Source: Shigella phage phi25-307. Taken from it: a stretch of DNA of 64,000 nucleotides. The DNA lies in sequence record MG589383; one strand, given 5' to 3'. Position 1 is the first letter of the stretch; every line of letters starts with the position of its first letter. Position numbers and translations under genes: made by a program. Below the pieces are notes generated by a model that made no database searches, had not been told where the DNA came from, and saw only the letters and a program-made list of their open reading frames with translations. Below are positions 10,330 through 60,918 of this stretch, in pieces.

Positions 10330-10349
10330 AAAAAGAGCCCGAAGGCTCT
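10330..10349 (-). terminator. rho-independent terminator (stem AGAGCC/GGCTCT, UUCG loop, U-tract)
   Basis: Minus-strand AAGAGCC-TTCG-GGCTCTT-TTTGG immediately after ORF 10349-10537. Confidence 0.55.
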
Positions 10350-10537
10350 TAATCCACAATCGGGAGCAAAGTACGATAAACTTCAAAATTAGGGCCTTTT
10401 TCGTACCCATTAACGTTATCTACGAAAACCCGATACGAATTTTCATTAGGAAAATCTAATATAATCTGAGAGCAAGAGGTGGAAACATCTCCACCATCCT
10501 TCTTAGCTACAATAACTGTTTCTAAATAAGCTTTCAT
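10349..10537 (-). CDS. hypothetical small protein (62 aa), translationally coupled to ligase (TAATG overlap)
   Basis: ORF between ligase and alt; start ATG 10537 overlaps ligase stop; terminator hairpin at its 3-prime end. Confidence 0.45.
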   Translation of the reverse strand: MKAYLETVIVAKKDGGDVSTSCSQIILDFPNENSYRVFVDNVNGYEKGPNFEVYRTLLPIVD

Positions 10538-14037: not shown

Positions 14038-14652
14038 CTACTTAACGAAATTAATTTCTACTGGATGAACAACAGGTTGAGCAGTGATATATTGAGTAAT
14101 TGCTTTCATGACTAGAGCTTCAGAACCAGGATTTTTCTCAACGAATTCACGTGCTTGGTTATGAGCTTCAAGTTCACTTAGTAAACCACTTCGTTGGCAT
14201 CCACGGTCTTGAGTACCCTGTTCAGATAAAAAGACGACGATGTATTTTTCATCGTCATACGGTTTAGACGGTTGAGCAAATGTTCCTTTACTTCCAAAAG
14301 GAGAGTTATGACGCCACATCACGCCGTGAGGAGTTTCAACCTTCATATATTCGTGCGGGCCATTTTTCTTAGTTTCTTGATGTGGAACTTCGTGGACCTT
14401 AGGGTTAGGACATTCAATAAAATGCTCATCTAAATCGGTCGAGAATATTAAAGTAAAACAATTACTGAATTTACCAACACCTGCCTGATAAATTTTACCT
14501 TCAGAAGTTCTAATTTCACAAACCGAGCCGGCATCAGTAACTTCTAAAACTTCAAAAGGCTCGATAAGGTCATATGAGAACATGTTTTTAAGGCGTGGAG
14601 TAATATCCCCATTTTTAAAATTCATTTTATAAAAAGTATTAACTTTAAACAT
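14038..14652 (-). CDS. hypothetical protein (204 aa)
   Basis: Long ORF, SD GAGGAAATT upstream of ATG; no recognisable domain. Confidence 0.55.
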   Translation of the reverse strand: MFKVNTFYKMNFKNGDITPRLKNMFSYDLIEPFEVLEVTDAGSVCEIRTSEGKIYQAGVGKFSNCFTLIFSTDLDEHFIECPNPKVHEVPHQETKKNGPHEYMKVETPHGVMWRHNSPFGSKGTFAQPSKPYDDEKYIVVFLSEQGTQDRGCQRSGLLSELEAHNQAREFVEKNPGSEALVMKAITQYITAQPVVHPVEINFVK

Positions 14653-14687
14653 AATTTCCTCAGTGGGAGCCGAAGCTCCCAGTTAAA

Positions 14688-15053: not shown

Positions 15054-15091
15054 TTATTCTCCAGATGTTTAAGTTGTTTGTTGGTACAGGT

Positions 15092-15124
15092 CTATAATAA
15101 CAAAACCTGTACCAAAGTAAACAT
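15092..15124 (-). promoter_or_regulatory. T4-type early promoter with inverted repeat GGTACAGGT/ACCTGTACC flanking -10
   Basis: Minus-strand GTTTAC..17 nt..TATTAT; palindrome 15085-15112. Confidence 0.5.
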
Positions 15125-15600: not shown

Positions 15601-15623
15601 CAAAAGGGAGACCGAAGTCTCCC
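15601..15623 (-). terminator. rho-independent terminator (GGGAGAC-UUCG-GUCUCCC, U-tract)
   Basis: Minus-strand hairpin followed by TTTTG; after ORF 15629-15808. Confidence 0.55.
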
Positions 15624-15628
15624 TAAAA

Positions 15629-17137: not shown

Positions 17138-17719
17138 TTATTCACCACAAAAGTTTCGGATTTGTTCCCAATTCAGAGAACGAAGATTATTACGAGAGTA
17201 CTGAATTACTTCAATACCGGCTTGTTTTAGAATGTCTGCCCAATTTTCAGGAGATCTGTCATATAATTCTGCGTATACAACCTTTTTAATACCTGACTGC
17301 GTAATAGCTTTAGTGCAATCAGGACATGGAGAAAGTGTCGTATACAACGTAGCACCTTCAATAGAATTACCTTTACGAGCTGCAAACAAAATGGCATTCA
17401 ATTCAGCATGGATTTCGTTATTAGCAGACCATGCACTATGAGCGGCCCGATGTTCTTTAGCCAAAACAAAATTATCCACCCGTCCAAATGCTGTAGTGCC
17501 TTCTTTATGTCCGGCAACGATGACCGGGCTTGGTTTATTCTTCAACCAACCGTTTTCGGATGCATGTTCACAACAGTTAACGCCACCTGCTGGTGAGCCA
17601 TTATATCCAGTAGAGATAATGCGTCCATCTTTTTCAATGACGGCACCAACTTTCCATGAACAACATTTTGATTCTTGAGAAATCAGATATGCAATCTGAA
17701 GGTATGTGCTAGCTTTCAT
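17138..17719 (-). CDS. cd: dCMP deaminase (193 aa)
   Basis: Cytidine/dCMP deaminase zinc motifs HAELNA and PCPDC; size equals T4 Cd. Confidence 0.9.
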   Translation of the reverse strand: MKASTYLQIAYLISQESKCCSWKVGAVIEKDGRIISTGYNGSPAGGVNCCEHASENGWLKNKPSPVIVAGHKEGTTAFGRVDNFVLAKEHRAAHSAWSANNEIHAELNAILFAARKGNSIEGATLYTTLSPCPDCTKAITQSGIKKVVYAELYDRSPENWADILKQAGIEVIQYSRNNLRSLNWEQIRNFCGE

Positions 17720-18711
17720 TATTGAACCTTATTAATATAAGTTAACAGCTCTTTAGTTTGTTCCCAACCGATGCACGCATCGGTAACGGAAACGCCATAG
17801 GACATATTATCAGAAATTTTTTGATTTCCTTCATGTAGGAATGATTCTATCATAATTCCTTTGACCAAATCATTAGCTGCTAAATTTTTACCAATACCAA
17901 TTTGATTGCTATAATACCCATCAGCGTTTGCGTGGCTACAGTCAACCATTACATAATGATTCAGACCTAATGCACTTGCTTTGTTAGAAGCTTCTTGAAT
18001 ATCAGAAGAATGATAGTTCGGGCCGTTAGTCCCGCCACGCAATACGATATGCGTATTCTGATTACCTTCAGCTTCAACAATGCCTACAGTACCATCGACG
18101 TCCATACCCATATACCGATGAGGCCAGGCGGCACTATACATCGCGTCTGTAGCTACTTTAATAGAACCATTGGTTGCGTTCTTGAAGCCTACGCACATCG
18201 GTAGACCTGAAGCAATTTCACGATGTGTCTGACTTTCAGTCGTACGGGCGCCAATAGCAACCCATGAGAAAATACCAGAAAGATACTTAATCGTGAATGG
18301 GTCTAATACTTCAGTTGCTAATGGAAGTCCCATACGTAGAAGTTTACGACACAATGTTCGTGCAACTATAAGACCGTGGTTCATATCAAAACTTCCGTCA
18401 AGATATGGATCATTTACAAGACCTTTCCAACCTACGGTAGTTCGAGGCTTTTCAAAATAAACGCGCATCACTAACAGAACATTAGGAAGACGAGTTTGAA
18501 GTTCAGCCAGACGTTTGCCGTATTCAACAGCAGCAATAGGGTCATGAATTGAACAAGGACCTACAACAATAAGTTTGCGTGGGTCTTCACCGTTCATAAT
18601 CGAATTAACTTGTTCGCGATGAGAAGCCACTTGTGATGCGTAAGCTTCCGACAAAGGAATAATCTCAGCCAGTTCTTTTGGAGAAATAAGTTTTCTGACG
18701 ATAGGTAACAT
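17719..18711 (-). CDS. 3-deoxy-D-arabino-heptulosonate-7-phosphate (DAHP) synthase, class I-alpha AroG-like (330 aa)
   Basis: Motifs shared with E. coli AroG along the whole length: GPCSIHDP, VMRVYFEKPRTTVGWKGL.NDP, GARTTESQ.HRE.ASGL, VGFKN.T.G.IKVA.DA, LRGG, D.SHAN, ESFL.EGNQ, TDACIGWE. Confidence 0.85.
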   Translation of the reverse strand: MLPIVRKLISPKELAEIIPLSEAYASQVASHREQVNSIMNGEDPRKLIVVGPCSIHDPIAAVEYGKRLAELQTRLPNVLLVMRVYFEKPRTTVGWKGLVNDPYLDGSFDMNHGLIVARTLCRKLLRMGLPLATEVLDPFTIKYLSGIFSWVAIGARTTESQTHREIASGLPMCVGFKNATNGSIKVATDAMYSAAWPHRYMGMDVDGTVGIVEAEGNQNTHIVLRGGTNGPNYHSSDIQEASNKASALGLNHYVMVDCSHANADGYYSNQIGIGKNLAANDLVKGIMIESFLHEGNQKISDNMSYGVSVTDACIGWEQTKELLTYINKVQ

Positions 18712-21194: not shown

Positions 21195-21251
21195 TTAGAT
21201 TTCCTCAATTATCCATAGGAGCATTATACTCTGCTCCTGAGAGTTTGTAAA

Positions 21252-24250: not shown

Positions 24251-24276
24251 AATAAAGTGGGACCGAAGTCCCGTCC

Positions 24277-30102: not shown

Positions 30103-30495
30103 CTACTTTTTAAAAGTTTTTTGCAAAAGTTTGATGATTTCGTCGACGTTGGTTTCATCTACGATACAATGTATTTTTGTTACACCTAAAGCTATACCTT
30201 TGTTGGTAGATTGAGGCTTTACTAAATCTACCTCAGTAAAGTATTTGAACTCGTCAGGATAAATCTCAAAATAAGTTTCAATTTCACCAGCGGCAGAACA
30301 TACAGTACCGTCTTCCATAGTTACACTTACTACGTTTGGCGTATCGTCATCATAATCAGGTTCCATTCCGTTTACAACAAAACTAGGCCCGTGGAGTTCA
30401 ATCAATTTTAACATCTTAGCGTTATTGTGTGGCGCTTCTTGAACAAAGTCGTCTTTAAACAAAGGGTTAATGATATAAGATTTTCCGATTTCCAT
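30103..30495 (-). CDS. hypothetical protein (130 aa)
   Basis: ORF with early promoter upstream (about 30510-30558). Confidence 0.5.
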   Translation of the reverse strand: MEIGKSYIINPLFKDDFVQEAPHNNAKMLKLIELHGPSFVVNGMEPDYDDDTPNVVSVTMEDGTVCSAAGEIETYFEIYPDEFKYFTEVDLVKPQSTNKGIALGVTKIHCIVDETNVDEIIKLLQKTFKK

Positions 30496-30579: not shown

Positions 30580-30602
30580 CAAAAGGGAGACCGAAGTCTC
30601 CC
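30580..30602 (-). terminator. gene 32 terminator (GGGAGAC-UUCG-GUCUCCC, U-tract)
   Basis: Hairpin starts 6 nt after gene 32 stop; TTTTGAG follows. Confidence 0.65.
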
Positions 30603-45092: not shown

Positions 45093-45124
45093 AACGTTTT
45101 ATTCATTCCACTTAATTGATAGGA

Positions 45125-45158
45125 GTATAGTACCACTATCAGTGTTGATTGTAAACGG
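45125..45158 (-). promoter_or_regulatory. T4-type early promoter upstream of asiA
   Basis: Minus-strand GTTTACAATCAACACTGATAGTGGTACTAT. Confidence 0.5.
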
Positions 45159-47475: not shown

Positions 47476-47496
47476 CAAAAGGGAGCCGAAGCTCCC
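47476..47496 (-). terminator. terminator downstream of gene 52 (GGGAGC-UUCG-GCUCCC, U-tract)
   Basis: Minus-strand hairpin followed by TTTTGTG; upstream of motA promoter. Confidence 0.55.
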
Positions 47497-47572
47497 TAAT
47501 CGTGTTTGTCCAACCAATACAGCCAAATCACTAGTGCAGCTATTGCACCGAGAAATCCTAAGGCTAGGGCAC

Positions 47573-49188: not shown

Positions 49189-49240
49189 TTTAATTACCTC
49201 AAAAATAAATTAAAGGCCTAGCTTAATAGGCCTGTATAAA

Positions 49241-49965: not shown

Positions 49966-50215
49966 TTTGTGTTCCTCATGTTTCAGTAGGACTACTATAC
50001 CATAATCCTACCTTGATGTAAACAATTAAATTACATTAAAATATGTTAAAGCCAACCATGTTCCAGTGAACGAACATACGATGTAAAAACCCGTATCACA
50101 AATTGTTCTTAGTACAATAAGAAGCGCATTTTTCATAAGTACCTCAATGCAATTGAAAATATTATACAAATCATAGGGATACTAAGCAACCATATTCCGA
50201 TCCACATTTTAGAGC

Positions 50216-50479
50216 TCATATCTCAACTTCCGCGAGTTCCATATATCCTTTGTTGATAACCTCTTTAAGGTCTTTAGAAAGAATAACACTAAAATGGTCG
50301 TTCATATGTCCATTAACTAAACGAGTTATTTCTGCTTCAGATGACATATAAGGCACGTCTGAGTCCCAATGAGATAGACTCAAATGGGTATAAATCATCC
50401 CTTCGTCATCTGCGGTGTTGTACATTGAAACAAATTCGCCTGTTACTTTATGTTTTGCGTAGAAAAATTTAAATTTCAT
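50216..50479 (-). CDS. hypothetical protein (87 aa)
   Basis: ORF with palindromic early promoter upstream (50495-50535). Confidence 0.45.
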   Translation of the reverse strand: MKFKFFYAKHKVTGEFVSMYNTADDEGMIYTHLSLSHWDSDVPYMSSEAEITRLVNGHMNDHFSVILSKDLKEVINKGYMELAEVEI

Positions 50480-50547
50480 GATGTTATCCTCTTTTAGATA
50501 GGACTACTATATCATAGTCCTACTTAGTTGTAAACACTTTTATGAAA

Positions 50548-51328: not shown

Positions 51329-51340
51329 AATTACCCCTAA

Positions 51341-51366
51341 AGAAAAAAAAGGGGACCGAAGTCCCC
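51341..51366 (-). terminator. rIIB terminator (GGGGAC-UUCG-GUCCCC, U8 tract)
   Basis: Hairpin begins 6 nt after rIIB stop; followed by TTTTTTTTCTTT on the minus strand. Confidence 0.7.
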
Positions 51367-55936: not shown

Positions 55937-55978
55937 AATTAAGCCTTATTAAAATTAAAATGAAGCTCCCGAAGGAGC

Positions 55979-56791
55979 TTAGGACATCCAACACATTTTA
56001 TAACCTTTGCAGGTTCTGTTAGGATTATTTAATGCTTTCAATATATTAGAAGACCCTATATCTAAATACTCCCTTAATTCATAAAGATAGTTAAAATCAA
56101 TAGTTTCACCTGTTTTTACACTTGTGATTCTTATAGGCCTTCTTTCATATTTAGATTTATACAACTCTCTAGTCTTAGCTTTAGTTTCTTCTGACCTAGG
56201 AGTGTATGGTTTAAATCCTTTTGTTTTAAATGTTTCCATTCTTGATTTAGTTATTTTATCCTGGTGTTCTTTTGTTTTTACAGGTGCTTTTCGCCCATTC
56301 TCCCAAGATAACTTGTTGGCCTGTATTATTTTATCTATTGCTTCTTGCGTATGAGTTTTACCATAAAATGGATTTAATTCGCCTATACGTTGTGAAGCAA
56401 TATGTGACATTAATTCTCTTGTTGCTTTAGTATGTTTTTTACCTTTAAATGGGTTGCCATTTTTAGCAATCCATTCTTTCATAAATCTAGAGTGCTCTTT
56501 AGAGAATTCTTGTTTAAGCCAATCATAATCTCTAGAATTTCTAGCTCCCATGTAAAAAGCTCTAATAGCCATAAGCATAGAACGGTTCTTATGAATTTTA
56601 TAAAGCAATAAATGGGCGATAAAATGCTCTCTAGGGGTCATTTTAACTAGATTTGATTTAGCATTACTCCCACCCATAGATTTAGGCAAAATATGGTGAG
56701 TTTCAGTATAATTAGGAATAGTGCTGCGGTTTTTAGCCGCAGCGATAAGTTTATCATAAATTTTACGATAATTCATTATCCTAGCATCCAA
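55979..56791 (-). CDS. free-standing HNH homing endonuclease, Mob-like (270 aa)
   Basis: HNH core (TETHHILPKSMGGSNAKSNLVKMTPREHFIAH) plus repeated NUMOD-like DNA-binding modules (NPFKGKKHT, NPFYGKTHT); overlaps 3-prime end of gene 39 by 16 nt. Confidence 0.8.
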   Translation of the reverse strand: MDARIMNYRKIYDKLIAAAKNRSTIPNYTETHHILPKSMGGSNAKSNLVKMTPREHFIAHLLLYKIHKNRSMLMAIRAFYMGARNSRDYDWLKQEFSKEHSRFMKEWIAKNGNPFKGKKHTKATRELMSHIASQRIGELNPFYGKTHTQEAIDKIIQANKLSWENGRKAPVKTKEHQDKITKSRMETFKTKGFKPYTPRSEETKAKTRELYKSKYERRPIRITSVKTGETIDFNYLYELREYLDIGSSNILKALNNPNRTCKGYKMCWMS

Positions 56792-60853: not shown

Positions 60854-60918
60854 AATTTTTCTCTCTTTGTTTAAGTTGAATTCATTATACTCCATCCATC
60901 CTTGGATGTAAACTGGTT

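Follow-up and report, generated by a model that had tools for sequence, protein, structure and literature searches.

Palindromes over the -10 of early promoters in a T4-like phage appear to be PeSL-type cassettes, with stem-loops that probably form in read-through RNA

Why should several early promoters of a T4-like phage carry palindromes that span the -10 element? We addressed this question in a 64,000-nucleotide stretch of Shigella phage phi25-307 (sequence record MG589383; the whole 64 kb is referred to here as the window), which derives from a T4-like Mosigvirus of the RB69/HX01 group. A preliminary description had listed three such palindromes (P50535, P15122 and P21252), remarked that a sigma-70 promoter requires less than this, and proposed that they are operator sites for a dimeric regulator or RNA hairpins at the 5' ends of early transcripts. 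Direct reading recovered all three within 1-2 nt of where they had been placed, each lying across the -10 of a T4-type early promoter on the minus strand (GTTTAC-N16/17-TAnnnT). A scan added four further sites of the same kind, at 50023, 49762, 30103 and 19126 (Table 1). Judged by their sequence, these palindromes appear to be PeSL-type cassettes (promoter-early stem-loops), an already known kind of element in T4-type phages. We consider it probable that the stem-loop of these PeSL cassettes forms in read-through RNA and insulates neighbouring early units, with gene shuffling as a by-product.

Table 1. Stem-loop elements at early promoters in the window. Positions are those of the window; (-), minus strand; dG in kcal/mol, sense strand unless marked.
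Element	Extent	Setting	-35	-10	Left arm	Loop	Right arm	Remarks	dG	z
P50535	50499..50535 (-)	between denB and 87-aa ORF	GTTTACA 50535-50529	TATAGT 50511-50506, N17 after the -35	TAGGACTA 50522-50515	TGATATAG 50514-50507, 8 nt; contains TG-n-TATAG	TAGTCCTA 50506-50499	perfect 8-bp arms; final T of -10 is first base of right arm; predicted start A at 50499, ATG at 50479; 12 nt from denB stop codon to -35	-13.2	-3.2
P50023	49986..50023 (-)	precedes 66-aa ORF	GTTTACA 50023-50017	TATAGT 49999-49994	GTAGGATTA 50011-50003	50002-49995	TAGTCCTAC 49994-49986	one sense-strand G·U pair	-14.0 (antisense -7.3)	-3.3
P49762	49726..49762 (-)	precedes ndd	TTGTACA 49762-49756	TATAAT 49738-49733	TGAGAGCA 49749-49742	GAGTATAA 49741-49734	TGCTCTCA 49733-49726		-13.8	-3.75
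P30103	30065..30103 (-)	precedes 82-aa DUF5417 ORF (frd.1 orthologue)	GTTTATA 30103-30097	TATAGT 30079-30074	GATAGGGCTA 30092-30083	30082-30075	TAGTCCTATC 30074-30065	one G·U pair; -35 fused to TAG stop of upstream ORF	-16.0 (antisense -8.9)	-5.9
P21252	21217..21252 (-)	precedes 99-aa ORF before pseT	GTTTACA 21252-21246	TATAAT 21228-21223	AGGAGCA 21238-21232	GAGTATAA 21231-21224, 8 nt	TGCTCCT 21223-21217	7-bp arms; -35 fused to TAG stop	-12.2	-2.8
P19126	19087..19126 (-)	precedes 78-aa ORF	GTTTACA 19126-19120	TACTAT 19102-19097, partly within right arm	TGGTGGAGTTGT 19116-19105	GATACT 19104-19099	ATAACTCTACCA 19098-19087	two G·U pairs	-16.9 (antisense -8.1)	-5.2
P15122	15081..15122 (-)	precedes 121-aa ORF	GTTTACT 15122-15116	TATTAT 15099-15094	TTGGTACAGGT 15115-15105	15104-15092, 13 nt	ACCTGTACCAA 15091-15081	perfect 11-bp arms (9 bp noticed at first)	-18.3	-5.5
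Weaker, spacer type	60884..60913 (-)				ATCCA	agga	TGGAT	short stem-loop inside spacer, 60907-60894		
P23840, weaker, spacer type					CCACA	aggat	TGTGG	stem-loop 23831-23817		
P22658, weaker, spacer type					AACACCA	agga	TGGTGTT	stem-loop 22651-22634		
P8206, weaker, spacer type					ACACA	tgga	TGTGT	stem-loop 8198-8185		
P14038, weaker, spacer type								very weak		
Possible member (uncertain)	45117..45156 (-)		GTTTACA 45156-45150	TACTAT 45132-45127	GATAG.GG		CTCCTATC	imperfect stem across -10	-8.0	-1.4

All seven strong sites share a predicted layout, GTTTAC(A/T)-N16/17-TAnnnT followed by a Shine-Dalgarno (SD) sequence and an ATG 30-51 nt past the -10 (individual -35 heptamers are given in Table 1). 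The 20 nt before the -35 average 77% A+T (46% A), against 62% (32% A) in the window. Copies number seven strong and about five weaker in the 64 kb, and the genes downstream are small (66-148 aa) and mostly hypothetical. P50535, P50023 and P30103 are paralogues of one another, as are P49762 and P21252 (family B), in which two stem pairs differ on both sides with pairing preserved. In the two families with 8-nt loops, the -10 and its TG extension lie in the loop at a fixed register, and the arms of P50535, P50023 and P21252 contain AGGA...TCCT. The five spacer-type stems are weaker (dG -5 to -8 kcal/mol). P14038 and P8206 have z scores near 0 and the other three about -1.3 to -1.9; none is individually significant against shuffles. 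A stem of this type is also present at the denB site in T4-like relatives. At 45117..45156 a crude test confirmed no start codon downstream, which makes the membership of that site uncertain.

Stems over the -10 are more frequent at early promoters of the window than chance allows. With RNAfold applied to 46 nt centred on the -10, z scores taken against dinucleotide shuffles and 3000 background segments of the same kind, a dG of -12 kcal/mol or better was reached by 7 of 18 high-confidence early promoters and by 3.3% of the background (binomial p = 1e-6); the two sets of folds also differ by the Mann-Whitney test (p = 4e-4). The seven strong stems comprise 7-12 bp across the -10, with dG values from -12 to -18 kcal/mol and z from -2.8 to -5.9. 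Perfect short inverted repeats in the whole window are in modest excess (81 vs 58 +/- 7), and an Rfam search of the whole window gave no match at gathering score. The preliminary description was right that the symmetry exceeds what a sigma-70 promoter needs, and the comparisons with relatives indicate that it is selected.

In relatives, conservation of the palindromes holds for the pairing of the stem and fails for the arm sequences, which are replaced entirely. At loci orthologous to site 15122 (45-95% protein identity), all 16 keep an 11-14 bp stem across the -10 with different arms, among them TTGGTACAGGT, GGTGAGGGTC, GCTGATTGAGTGT, TTGGTGTAGGAGTA and TTTGTAGGAGAC (dG -17 to -23 kcal/mol, z -4.7 to -8.8). 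RNAalifold and pair counts found 95.5% of cells paired, compared with 30-47% when the partner columns were slid, and compensatory changes on both sides at 6 of 12 pairs; the covariation score of 0.62 (0.26 in shuffles) was reached by none of 500 shuffles. Stems of 10-14 bp, varied in sequence, are present at 22 of 22 promoters orthologous to site 30103. RNAalifold returned no fixed-column consensus pairs for 19 of these orthologues (alignment A1), since their stems lie in registers a few bases apart between lineages; each sequence was folded separately with shuffled controls. In T4, the gap between frd.2 and frd.1 is laid out like P30103, and in the region examined the T4 reference record annotates no promoter or stem-loop features. 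In relative L020, the bases of the P19126 orthologue have changed (GGTAGAGTTGT / ATAGCTCTACC) and its stem is retained. Relatives that have no promoter at site 21252 (T4-like ones) or at site 19126 have no stem there either. HX01 tolerates one broken pair in the arm of site 50535.

The mismatches in these stems are asymmetric between strands. Across distinct stems, G·U pairs outnumber A·C by 42:13 (p = 1e-4), and folding is more stable on the sense than on the antisense strand (Wilcoxon p = 1.6e-6 for 91 sequences, p = 0.013 within the window). The G·U excess points to an RNA, or sense-strand, hairpin. This RNA is unlikely to be the promoter's own transcript. With start sites placed by the usual 7-nt spacing from the -10, and with the preference of RB69 promoters for C at -3 to -1 (Nolan 2006), the left arm falls in the spacer (about -23 to -16) and the right arm runs from -7 to about +1 at site 50535 or +7 at site 15122, so the promoter's own RNA would contain nothing of the left arm and little or nothing of the right. 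On these predicted starts, the hairpin could form only in RNA entering from the upstream gene. The purine-rich left arms (AGGA, GGAG) may be more simply explained as the complement of a conserved CCT just before the start than as RegB sites or decoy SD sequences. Sequestration of the downstream SD by the right arm was rejected, with a complementarity of at most about 4 bp. Hairpins at early promoters go unmentioned in Nolan 2006 and Hinton 2010, and a literature search for genome-wide mapping of 5' and 3' transcript ends in T4-type phages found nothing usable.

PeSLs have been described in RB49/phi1 (Arbiol 2010, PMC2839356) and in T4/PST and nt-1/KVP40 (Comeau 2014, PMC4122927). Like the elements here, they occupy intergenic AT-rich stretches that combine an early promoter with a stem-loop and the SD/ATG of a small gene, most often place the stem in the spacer or over the -10 (stated in Arbiol 2010 as between -35 and -10 or overlapping the -10), and recur many times in plastic early regions at indel or replacement junctions. 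The window reproduces this set: early promoters facing an SD/ATG, A+T-rich upstream sequence, a stem-loop, dispersed copies and indel junctions. Our elements match those of T4/PST in promoter consensus (TTTACW-N17-TAYWAT) and in the frequent AGNA-loop-TCNT stems, and one published example lies in the same ndd region (Comeau 2014). Mosigviruses (the RB69 group) were not among the phage pairs analysed in those papers. Compared with the polyG/polyC stems of RB49, those of the window are richer in A+T, and no T-run follows them. Related elements at T-even internal-protein (IP) loci (Repoila et al. 1994, as relayed by Arbiol 2010) share the T4-type early promoters, weaker AT-rich stem-loops of variable size and gene shuffling, and in that account are described for IP loci only. 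The published case for PeSLs rested on sequence repeats and one reporter assay, in which a stem-loop cut lacZ expression as strongly as rrnB T1; the promoter, terminator/attenuator and mini-circle tests cover RB49/phi1 elements only (Arbiol 2010). To this case our analysis adds covariation, strand bias and a distribution complementary to that of true terminators.

The last of these concerns the genes upstream. At 13 promoters without an upstream terminator, the gap from the preceding stop codon to the -35 is only -1 to 12 nt, and 10 of the 13 have an embedded stem. None of four others does (Fisher p = 0.015): three lie behind a UUCG-loop terminator with a T-run, and one has no same-strand gene upstream. 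However, P59964, with a 4-nt gap, has neither terminator nor stem, and the T4 promoter after gene 32 has both an upstream terminator and a small spacer palindrome; with these exceptions and the small numbers, the complementarity is only a tendency. The C(UUCG)G terminators of the same phage resemble our elements in being stable intergenic sense-strand hairpins behind early genes, some of them directly before an early promoter (47480-47497, 30585-30602 and 15605-15624). In contrast to the elements here, which enclose the -10 in loops of 4-13 nt inside the promoter and have no T-run, they are GC-rich, have 4-nt loops and a T-run, and stand outside the promoter. We rejected the idea that the stems over the -10 are canonical intrinsic (Rho-independent) terminators, since no T-run follows any of the seven (T count 1-4 within 10 nt downstream) and a terminator-consensus scan flagged 0 of 7, though it detected the phage's UUCG terminators. 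A similar hairpin at 14664-14681, also without a T-run, stands ahead of a gene lacking its own promoter. At least hairpins of that type must therefore permit read-through, a case that favours a role as decay barrier or attenuator over efficient termination.

A closer relation to termination is conceivable but, in our assessment, unlikely: the elements might be promoter-coupled terminators in the bacterial sense, in which polymerase on a strong overlapping promoter compensates for the missing U-tract. There is a precedent in bacteria, where overlapping promoters raise termination at coupled terminators and save intergenic space (Fletcher et al. 2026, bioRxiv 10.64898/2026.08.19.745784). As in those systems, the termination and initiation signals of tandem genes would share DNA here, each written into the parts left free by the other, with shorter intergenic regions as a result; the near-consensus early promoters and extremely short gaps of the window fit this scheme. 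The geometry does not. Bacterial promoter-coupled terminators place the stem over the -35, fill the spacer with the T-tract and reach the -10 afterwards, with transcripts ending some 10 bp short of the start site, whereas the stems here enclose the -10 and no T-tract follows. Moreover, judging from footprint size, a promoter-bound polymerase would stall the incoming one before the stem had been transcribed.

A comparably doubtful reading places the selected structure in the DNA, as a cruciform or single-strand hairpin that holds the -10 in its loop and so tunes promoter melting, or as a target for structure-specific nucleases or recombination (T4 endonuclease VII, for example) with shuffling as its purpose. 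In its favour, JM10 lacks the equivalent of 50041-50497 of the window, and the junction of this natural deletion lies inside an element, a chimera of P50535 and P50023 over 55 nt of shared sequence. The looping of the -10 and TG extension at fixed register in the two 8-nt-loop families could be taken in the same sense, and a crossover inside a loop, together with mini-circles, has been reported for published PeSLs (Arbiol 2010). However, ordinary homologous recombination over about 55 nt of similarity explains the JM10 junction equally well, and the G·U bias translates into A·C mismatches on the complementary strand, which disfavours cruciforms. Cruciform extrusion is poor with loops of 8-13 nt and arms of 7-8 bp. 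Promoter tuning at the DNA level also does not predict that stems should be absent behind upstream terminators.

The operator reading, according to which a phage or host regulator binds the duplex palindromes as a dimer and times the early promoters, is very improbable. A protein bound to a dyad centred on the -10 would obstruct RNA polymerase, TAGGAYTA...TAGTCCTA is common to three sites, and the shut-off of T4 early promoters is not fully explained in a review (Hinton 2010). Yet the arms of the seven sites fall into at least four unrelated families with none common to all, and no 6-mer is shared between TAGGACTA, AGGAGCA/TGAGAGCA, TGGTGGAGTTGT and TTGGTACAGGT. Where arms are shared between sites they come with shared flanks, which identifies them as duplicated cassettes. 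Stem length (7-14 bp) and loop size (4-13 nt) both vary; orthologues keep the pairing, lose the arm sequence and drift by a few bases in register between lineages, and the broken pair in the 50535 arm of HX01 is tolerated. An excess of G·U on one strand would, furthermore, be meaningless for a protein site in duplex DNA.

The other proposal of the preliminary description, a hairpin at the 5' end of the early transcript, fared better in one respect: the strand bias supports a structure in sense-strand RNA or single strands. That it should cap, and for instance stabilise, the transcript of the same promoter is extremely unlikely, however, since at P50535 the predicted start coincides with the final base of the right arm, at P15122 it lies 7 nt into that arm, and the left arm is untranscribed spacer. 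Hardly credible is the absence of any function, with chance palindromes or hitch-hikers on duplicated promoter cassettes, for although there are clear paralogues (50535, 50023 and 30103; 21252 and 49762) and only a modest excess of short inverted repeats in the window, the promoter enrichment (p = 1e-6), the unrelated, independent stems with compensatory changes at orthologous sites and the two pairing-preserving double changes between the family-B paralogues speak against it, and the covariation refutes it.

We therefore return to PeSL cassettes acting through read-through RNA, for which we propose the following mechanism. About 40 bp would hold two signals, a T4-type early promoter (A-rich upstream region, GTTTAC at -35 and TG-n-TAnnnT at -10) and a stem of 8-14 bp, whose left arm is written into the spacer, where sequence is free, and whose right arm occupies the loosely constrained positions from -7 to about +1/+7. 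Since only -1 to 12 nt separate the end of the upstream gene from the -35, polymerase arriving from upstream must transcribe both arms. In the read-through RNA, the stem-loop would then form where the upstream cistron has its 3' boundary; there it most likely attenuates or pauses transcription, or blocks 3'-to-5' exonucleases. We infer these biochemical roles, and either would insulate adjacent early transcription units. Recombination would be a by-product: the dispersed copies, each about 45-55 nt long, would provide short homologies through which the small genes they flank may be deleted, inserted and swapped. Rearrangements coincide with such elements in the few cases examined. Besides the JM10 deletion, L074 has an additional gene with such elements on its flanks, and in L012 the denB promoter is the same but is followed by a different gene. 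In CEV1, a 47-nt cassette of the P49762 type stands ahead of an unrelated gene. Nesting might also couple the two signals: lacking a U-tract, the stem would stop or pause polymerase from upstream only while the embedded, very strong early promoter is occupied or active. Alternatively, the stem could be under selection for making the cassette a favoured substrate of the phage recombination machinery. We regard these extensions as speculative and improbable. Under the first of them, insulation would be set by promoter activity and relax after early shut-off, and read-through would feed delayed-early expression.

For annotation and engineering, recombination is likely to add or remove the small early genes between these elements, and mutations in the spacer may alter the RNA of the upstream gene and not the promoter itself. 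The comparative data give firmer support to the structural half of the PeSL proposal than motif repetition alone. The palindromes appear to be not a hidden repressor system but a local version of the cassettes that, by earlier proposals, organise the plastic early regions in T4-type phages and reshuffle them.

All three palindromes singled out in the preliminary description are present in the window (table), the arms of that at P15122 being longer, at 11 bp, than first reported (P-numbers designate minus-strand early promoters by the window coordinate of the -35 start). On the minus strand, each falls within a T4-type early promoter, GTTTAC(A/T)-N16/17-TAnnnT, with a Shine-Dalgarno sequence and ATG 30-51 nt downstream of the -10. 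In the two palindromes with 8-nt loops, the loop reads TG-n-TATAG or GAGTATAA, which places the -10 in the loop and its final T at the start of the right arm. Whole-window scans identified four further sites of the same kind. When 46-nt windows centred on the -10 were folded for 18 high-confidence minus-strand early promoters, seven reached -12 kcal/mol or lower, versus 3.3% of 3000 random same-strand windows (binomial p = 1e-6); these seven have z scores of -2.8 to -5.9 against dinucleotide shuffles. Perfect short inverted repeats are in only modest excess window-wide (81 versus 58 +/- 7 expected), indicating that the stem excess is promoter-specific.

Promoter-embedded palindromes, terminators and a T-run-less hairpin in the window
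Feature	Window coordinates	Strand	Left arm / loop / right arm, or composition
P50535 palindrome	50499-50522	-	TAGGACTA / 8 nt / TAGTCCTA
P15122 palindrome	15081-15115	-	TTGGTACAGGT / 13 nt / ACCTGTACCAA
P21252 palindrome	21217-21238	-	AGGAGCA / 8 nt / TGCTCCT
P50023 palindrome		-	GTAGGATTA / 8 nt / TAGTCCTAC
P30103 palindrome		-	GATAGGGCTA / 8 nt / TAGTCCTATC
P49762 palindrome		-	TGAGAGCA / 8 nt / TGCTCTCA
P19126 palindrome		-	TGGTGGAGTTGT / 6 nt / ATAACTCTACCA
UUCG terminator	47480-47497	-	stem, tetraloop, T-run
UUCG terminator	30585-30602	-	stem, tetraloop, T-run
UUCG terminator	15605-15624	-	stem, tetraloop, T-run
UUCG terminator	10333-10350	-	stem, tetraloop, T-run
UUCG terminator	55963-55980	-	stem, tetraloop, T-run
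UUCG terminator	24259-24272	-	stem, tetraloop, T-run
UUCG terminator	~51330-51350	-	stem, tetraloop, T-run
UUCG-loop hairpin	14664-14681	-	TGGGAGC-ttcg-GCTCCCA; no T-run, no promoter downstream

The 3-kb stretch around the P50535 palindrome, covering rIIB, denB, ndd and ac, shares 97-98% identity with many Mosigvirus phages of Escherichia (RB69/HX01/JS09 group). Gene order for the full window, taken from the annotated relative HX01, shows a long minus-strand run of early and middle genes (dda ... rIIA, rIIB, denB, ndd, motA, asiA; then rnh, gene 32, frd, td, nrdAB, rnlA, pseT, cd, gene 30, alt) broken up by plus-strand tail-fibre and baseplate genes. A 330-aa ORF (17719-18711, minus strand) is the positional counterpart of a gene whose HX01 annotation is phospho-2-dehydro-3-deoxyheptonate aldolase (DAHP synthase) and would, as such, be an auxiliary metabolic gene within the early region.

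The stems are fitted around the promoter signals. The left arm is contained in the spacer (about -23 to -16 at P50535), and the right arm starts at the final base of the -10 and ends near +1 at P50535 and +7 at P15122. The arms occupy the promoter positions under least RNA polymerase constraint, with the -35, TG extension and -10 outside them or within the loop. Stemless promoters, too, have the promoter-proximal consensus (AGnCCTATCAAC-like) that the right arm overlaps, and RB69 promoters prefer C at -3 to -1 (Nolan 2006); it therefore looks as if the free spacer evolved complementarity to a semi-constrained downstream segment. Short spacer stem-loops with a common AAGGA or ATGGA loop (CCA-agga-TGG type) occur in this phage and its T4-like relatives (60907-60894, 23831-23817, 22651-22634, 8198-8185 and ~14032-14019; downstream of denB in relatives' loci L005-L015).

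For conservation, we retrieved orthologous loci from IMG/VR, anchored on denB, pseT, DNA ligase and gp32, and extracted 100 nt upstream of the orthologues of each downstream gene. At site 15122, the P15122 locus, each of the 16 distinct upstream regions (protein identity 45-95%) contains a promoter whose -10 is spanned by a stem of 11-14 bp (-17 to -23 kcal/mol, z -4.7 to -8.8), the arms being unrelated in sequence (TTGGTACAGGT, GGTGAGGGTC, GCTGATTGAGTGT, TTGGTGTAGGAGTA, TTTGTAGGAGAC). RNAalifold analysis of 11 distinct sequences recovered 12 pairs, six of them changed on both sides; 95.5% of alignment cells are paired, versus 30-47% with partner columns slid by 1-3, and the covariation score of 0.62 (0.26 when shuffled) was reached by none of 500 shuffles. 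Stems of 10-14 bp are likewise found in 22/22 orthologous promoters at site 30103, where no fixed-column consensus structure emerged because the register shifts by a few bases among orthologues. This shifting argues that the stems were probably re-invented repeatedly rather than plainly inherited as one. At site 50535, close relatives retain the same stem, T4-like relatives have a 5-8 bp spacer stem instead (TACCAC...GTGGTA or ACRCCA...TGGTGT), and in the most distant loci an ordinary terminator takes its place; the hexamer AGGACT belongs to a stem arm in the window but to the loop in L005. At sites 21252 and 19126, relatives without the promoter also lack the stem. T4 shows the same layout after frd.2, with aaaaagTAGTTTACA followed by a stem spanning TACTAT. 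Between frd.2 and frd.1 of T4 (L127, NC_000866, ~2584-2516, minus strand) there is also a hydrophobic 22-codon ORF (MFAPYIMAAVMLVCLYLLIKAC), unannotated in that record, that has a good Shine-Dalgarno sequence and a copy in L047.

The mismatches within the stems indicate which molecule folds. An A·C pair on one strand is a G·T pair on the opposite strand; among distinct stems of at least 6 bp, the sense strand has 42 G·T and 13 A·C pairs (p = 1e-4). The sense fold exceeds the antisense fold in stability in 57/91 sequences (Wilcoxon p = 1.6e-6; p = 0.013 within the window alone). This bias is the signature of a sense-strand structure, most simply RNA, and argues against both a two-sided cruciform and a protein site in duplex DNA. 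The earlier proposal that the palindromes are operators is accordingly rejected, both on the mismatch counts and because relatives replace the arms with pairing kept. The alternative proposal, a hairpin at the 5' end of early transcripts, holds as regards RNA and fails as regards the transcript. Given canonical spacing between -10 and start, the promoter's own transcript would begin at or within the right arm and could not fold the stem. In the 13 promoters without an upstream terminator, the gap between the end of the preceding ORF and the -35 is -1 to 12 nt; with no terminator between stop codon and -35, incoming polymerases must transcribe both arms. From this layout we infer that the hairpin belongs to read-through RNA and lies where the upstream cistron has its 3' boundary. 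At five promoters the -35 is fused to the preceding TAG stop (TAGTTTAC), leaving zero intergenic spacer; such TAG-TTTAC fusions lie at 30103, 23840, 21252, 14038 and 8206, and in T4 (L127 ~2640-2650).

Embedded stems and true terminators tend to have complementary distributions. As its standard terminator the phage uses a GC-rich stem capped by a UUCG tetraloop, with a T-run after it (e.g., GGGAGAC-ttcg-GTCTCCC-tttt), and three such terminators sit directly 5' of an early promoter (P47455, P30553 and P15568; gaps 117, 55 and 23 nt). A fourth promoter, P34521, faces tail-fibre genes and so has no upstream same-strand gene. All four lack an embedded stem but retain right-arm-like sequence; stems are present in 10/13 promoters abutting an upstream gene (Fisher p = 0.015). 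Exceptions are P59964, with neither terminator nor stem, and the T4 promoter after gene 32, which combines a terminator with a small palindrome in the spacer. No T-run follows the embedded stems (1-4 T per 10 nt), and a terminator consensus scan left them unflagged, picking up only phage C(UUCG)G terminators. Hairpins lacking a T-run also separate cistrons where no promoter follows, in T4 between frd.3 and frd.2 and in the window at the UUCG-loop hairpin 1 nt past the stop of a 121-aa ORF and 11 nt ahead of the ATG of a 204-aa ORF (14038..14652), which must be transcribed through it. Since genes behind such hairpins must be read through, we favor a role for the stems as putative attenuators, pause sites or decay barriers over efficient termination. 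In the interval separating ndd from the small ORF that follows, two adjoining minus-strand inverted repeats (AGGCCTA-ttaagc-TAGGCCT, 49214-49233; TTTAATT-12-AATTAAA, 49189-49214) have no detectable early promoter.

The elements form paralogous families (P50535, P50023 and P30103; P21252 and P49762), the last two being separated by two double changes that leave pairing intact. Among ~160 close relatives compared, JM10 (L125, PP400777.1) has a natural 457-bp deletion corresponding to window 50041-50497, which takes out the 87-aa ORF. Its junction (locus 1536-1590, a 55-nt overlap of two alignments) is chimeric, joining the -35, left arm and loop of P50535, via the common right arm, to the leader and gene of P50023. 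CEV1 (L126, KM389389.1; locus 401-447) places a 47-nt P49762-type ndd-promoter cassette, ACAAACTCT-TGAGAGCA-gagtataa-TGCTCTC-GTTGGATAAT, before an unrelated gene; its -35 is degenerate (CGCACA) and its flanks have no match in the window. Elsewhere, an additional gene is bracketed by promoter/stem-loop elements (L074), and a different gene lies behind the same denB promoter (L012). The terminator-preceded promoter beside site 15122 or its orthologue has its own genome's version of the right arm (window 15568-15530 versus 15122-15081; L039, L041, L035), namely AGACTTGTACC versus AGACCTGTACC in the window and GTACACTCAATCA in both L039 promoters, with no complementary left arm. These matches suggest that neighboring promoters may exchange sequence.

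Promoter-early stem-loops (PeSLs) were described in RB49 and phi1, with stems most commonly between -35 and -10 or overlapping the -10, a proposed terminator/attenuator role on upstream transcription, one stem that reduced lacZ expression to the same extent as rrnB T1, ties to indels and mini-circles, and AT-richer analogues on T4-type early promoters at T-even IP loci (Arbiol et al. 2010, PMC2839356). They were extended to T4/PST and nt-1/KVP40, with a T4/PST promoter consensus of TTTACW-N17-TAYWAT, stems often of the form AGNA-loop-TCNT, and an exchange example in the same ndd region (Comeau et al. 2014, PMC4122927). The window elements show every testable sequence-level property of PeSLs and appear to be a new Mosigvirus member of this known element type. 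Promoter-coupled terminators described in bacteria (2026 preprint, bioRxiv 10.64898/2026.08.19.745784) follow the same logic but differ in geometry, with the stem over the -35 and a T-tract filling the spacer. To the PeSL picture, our analysis adds covariation and strand-bias evidence, a distribution of embedded stems that tends to complement that of true terminators, and a clear natural case of cassette loss between two elements.
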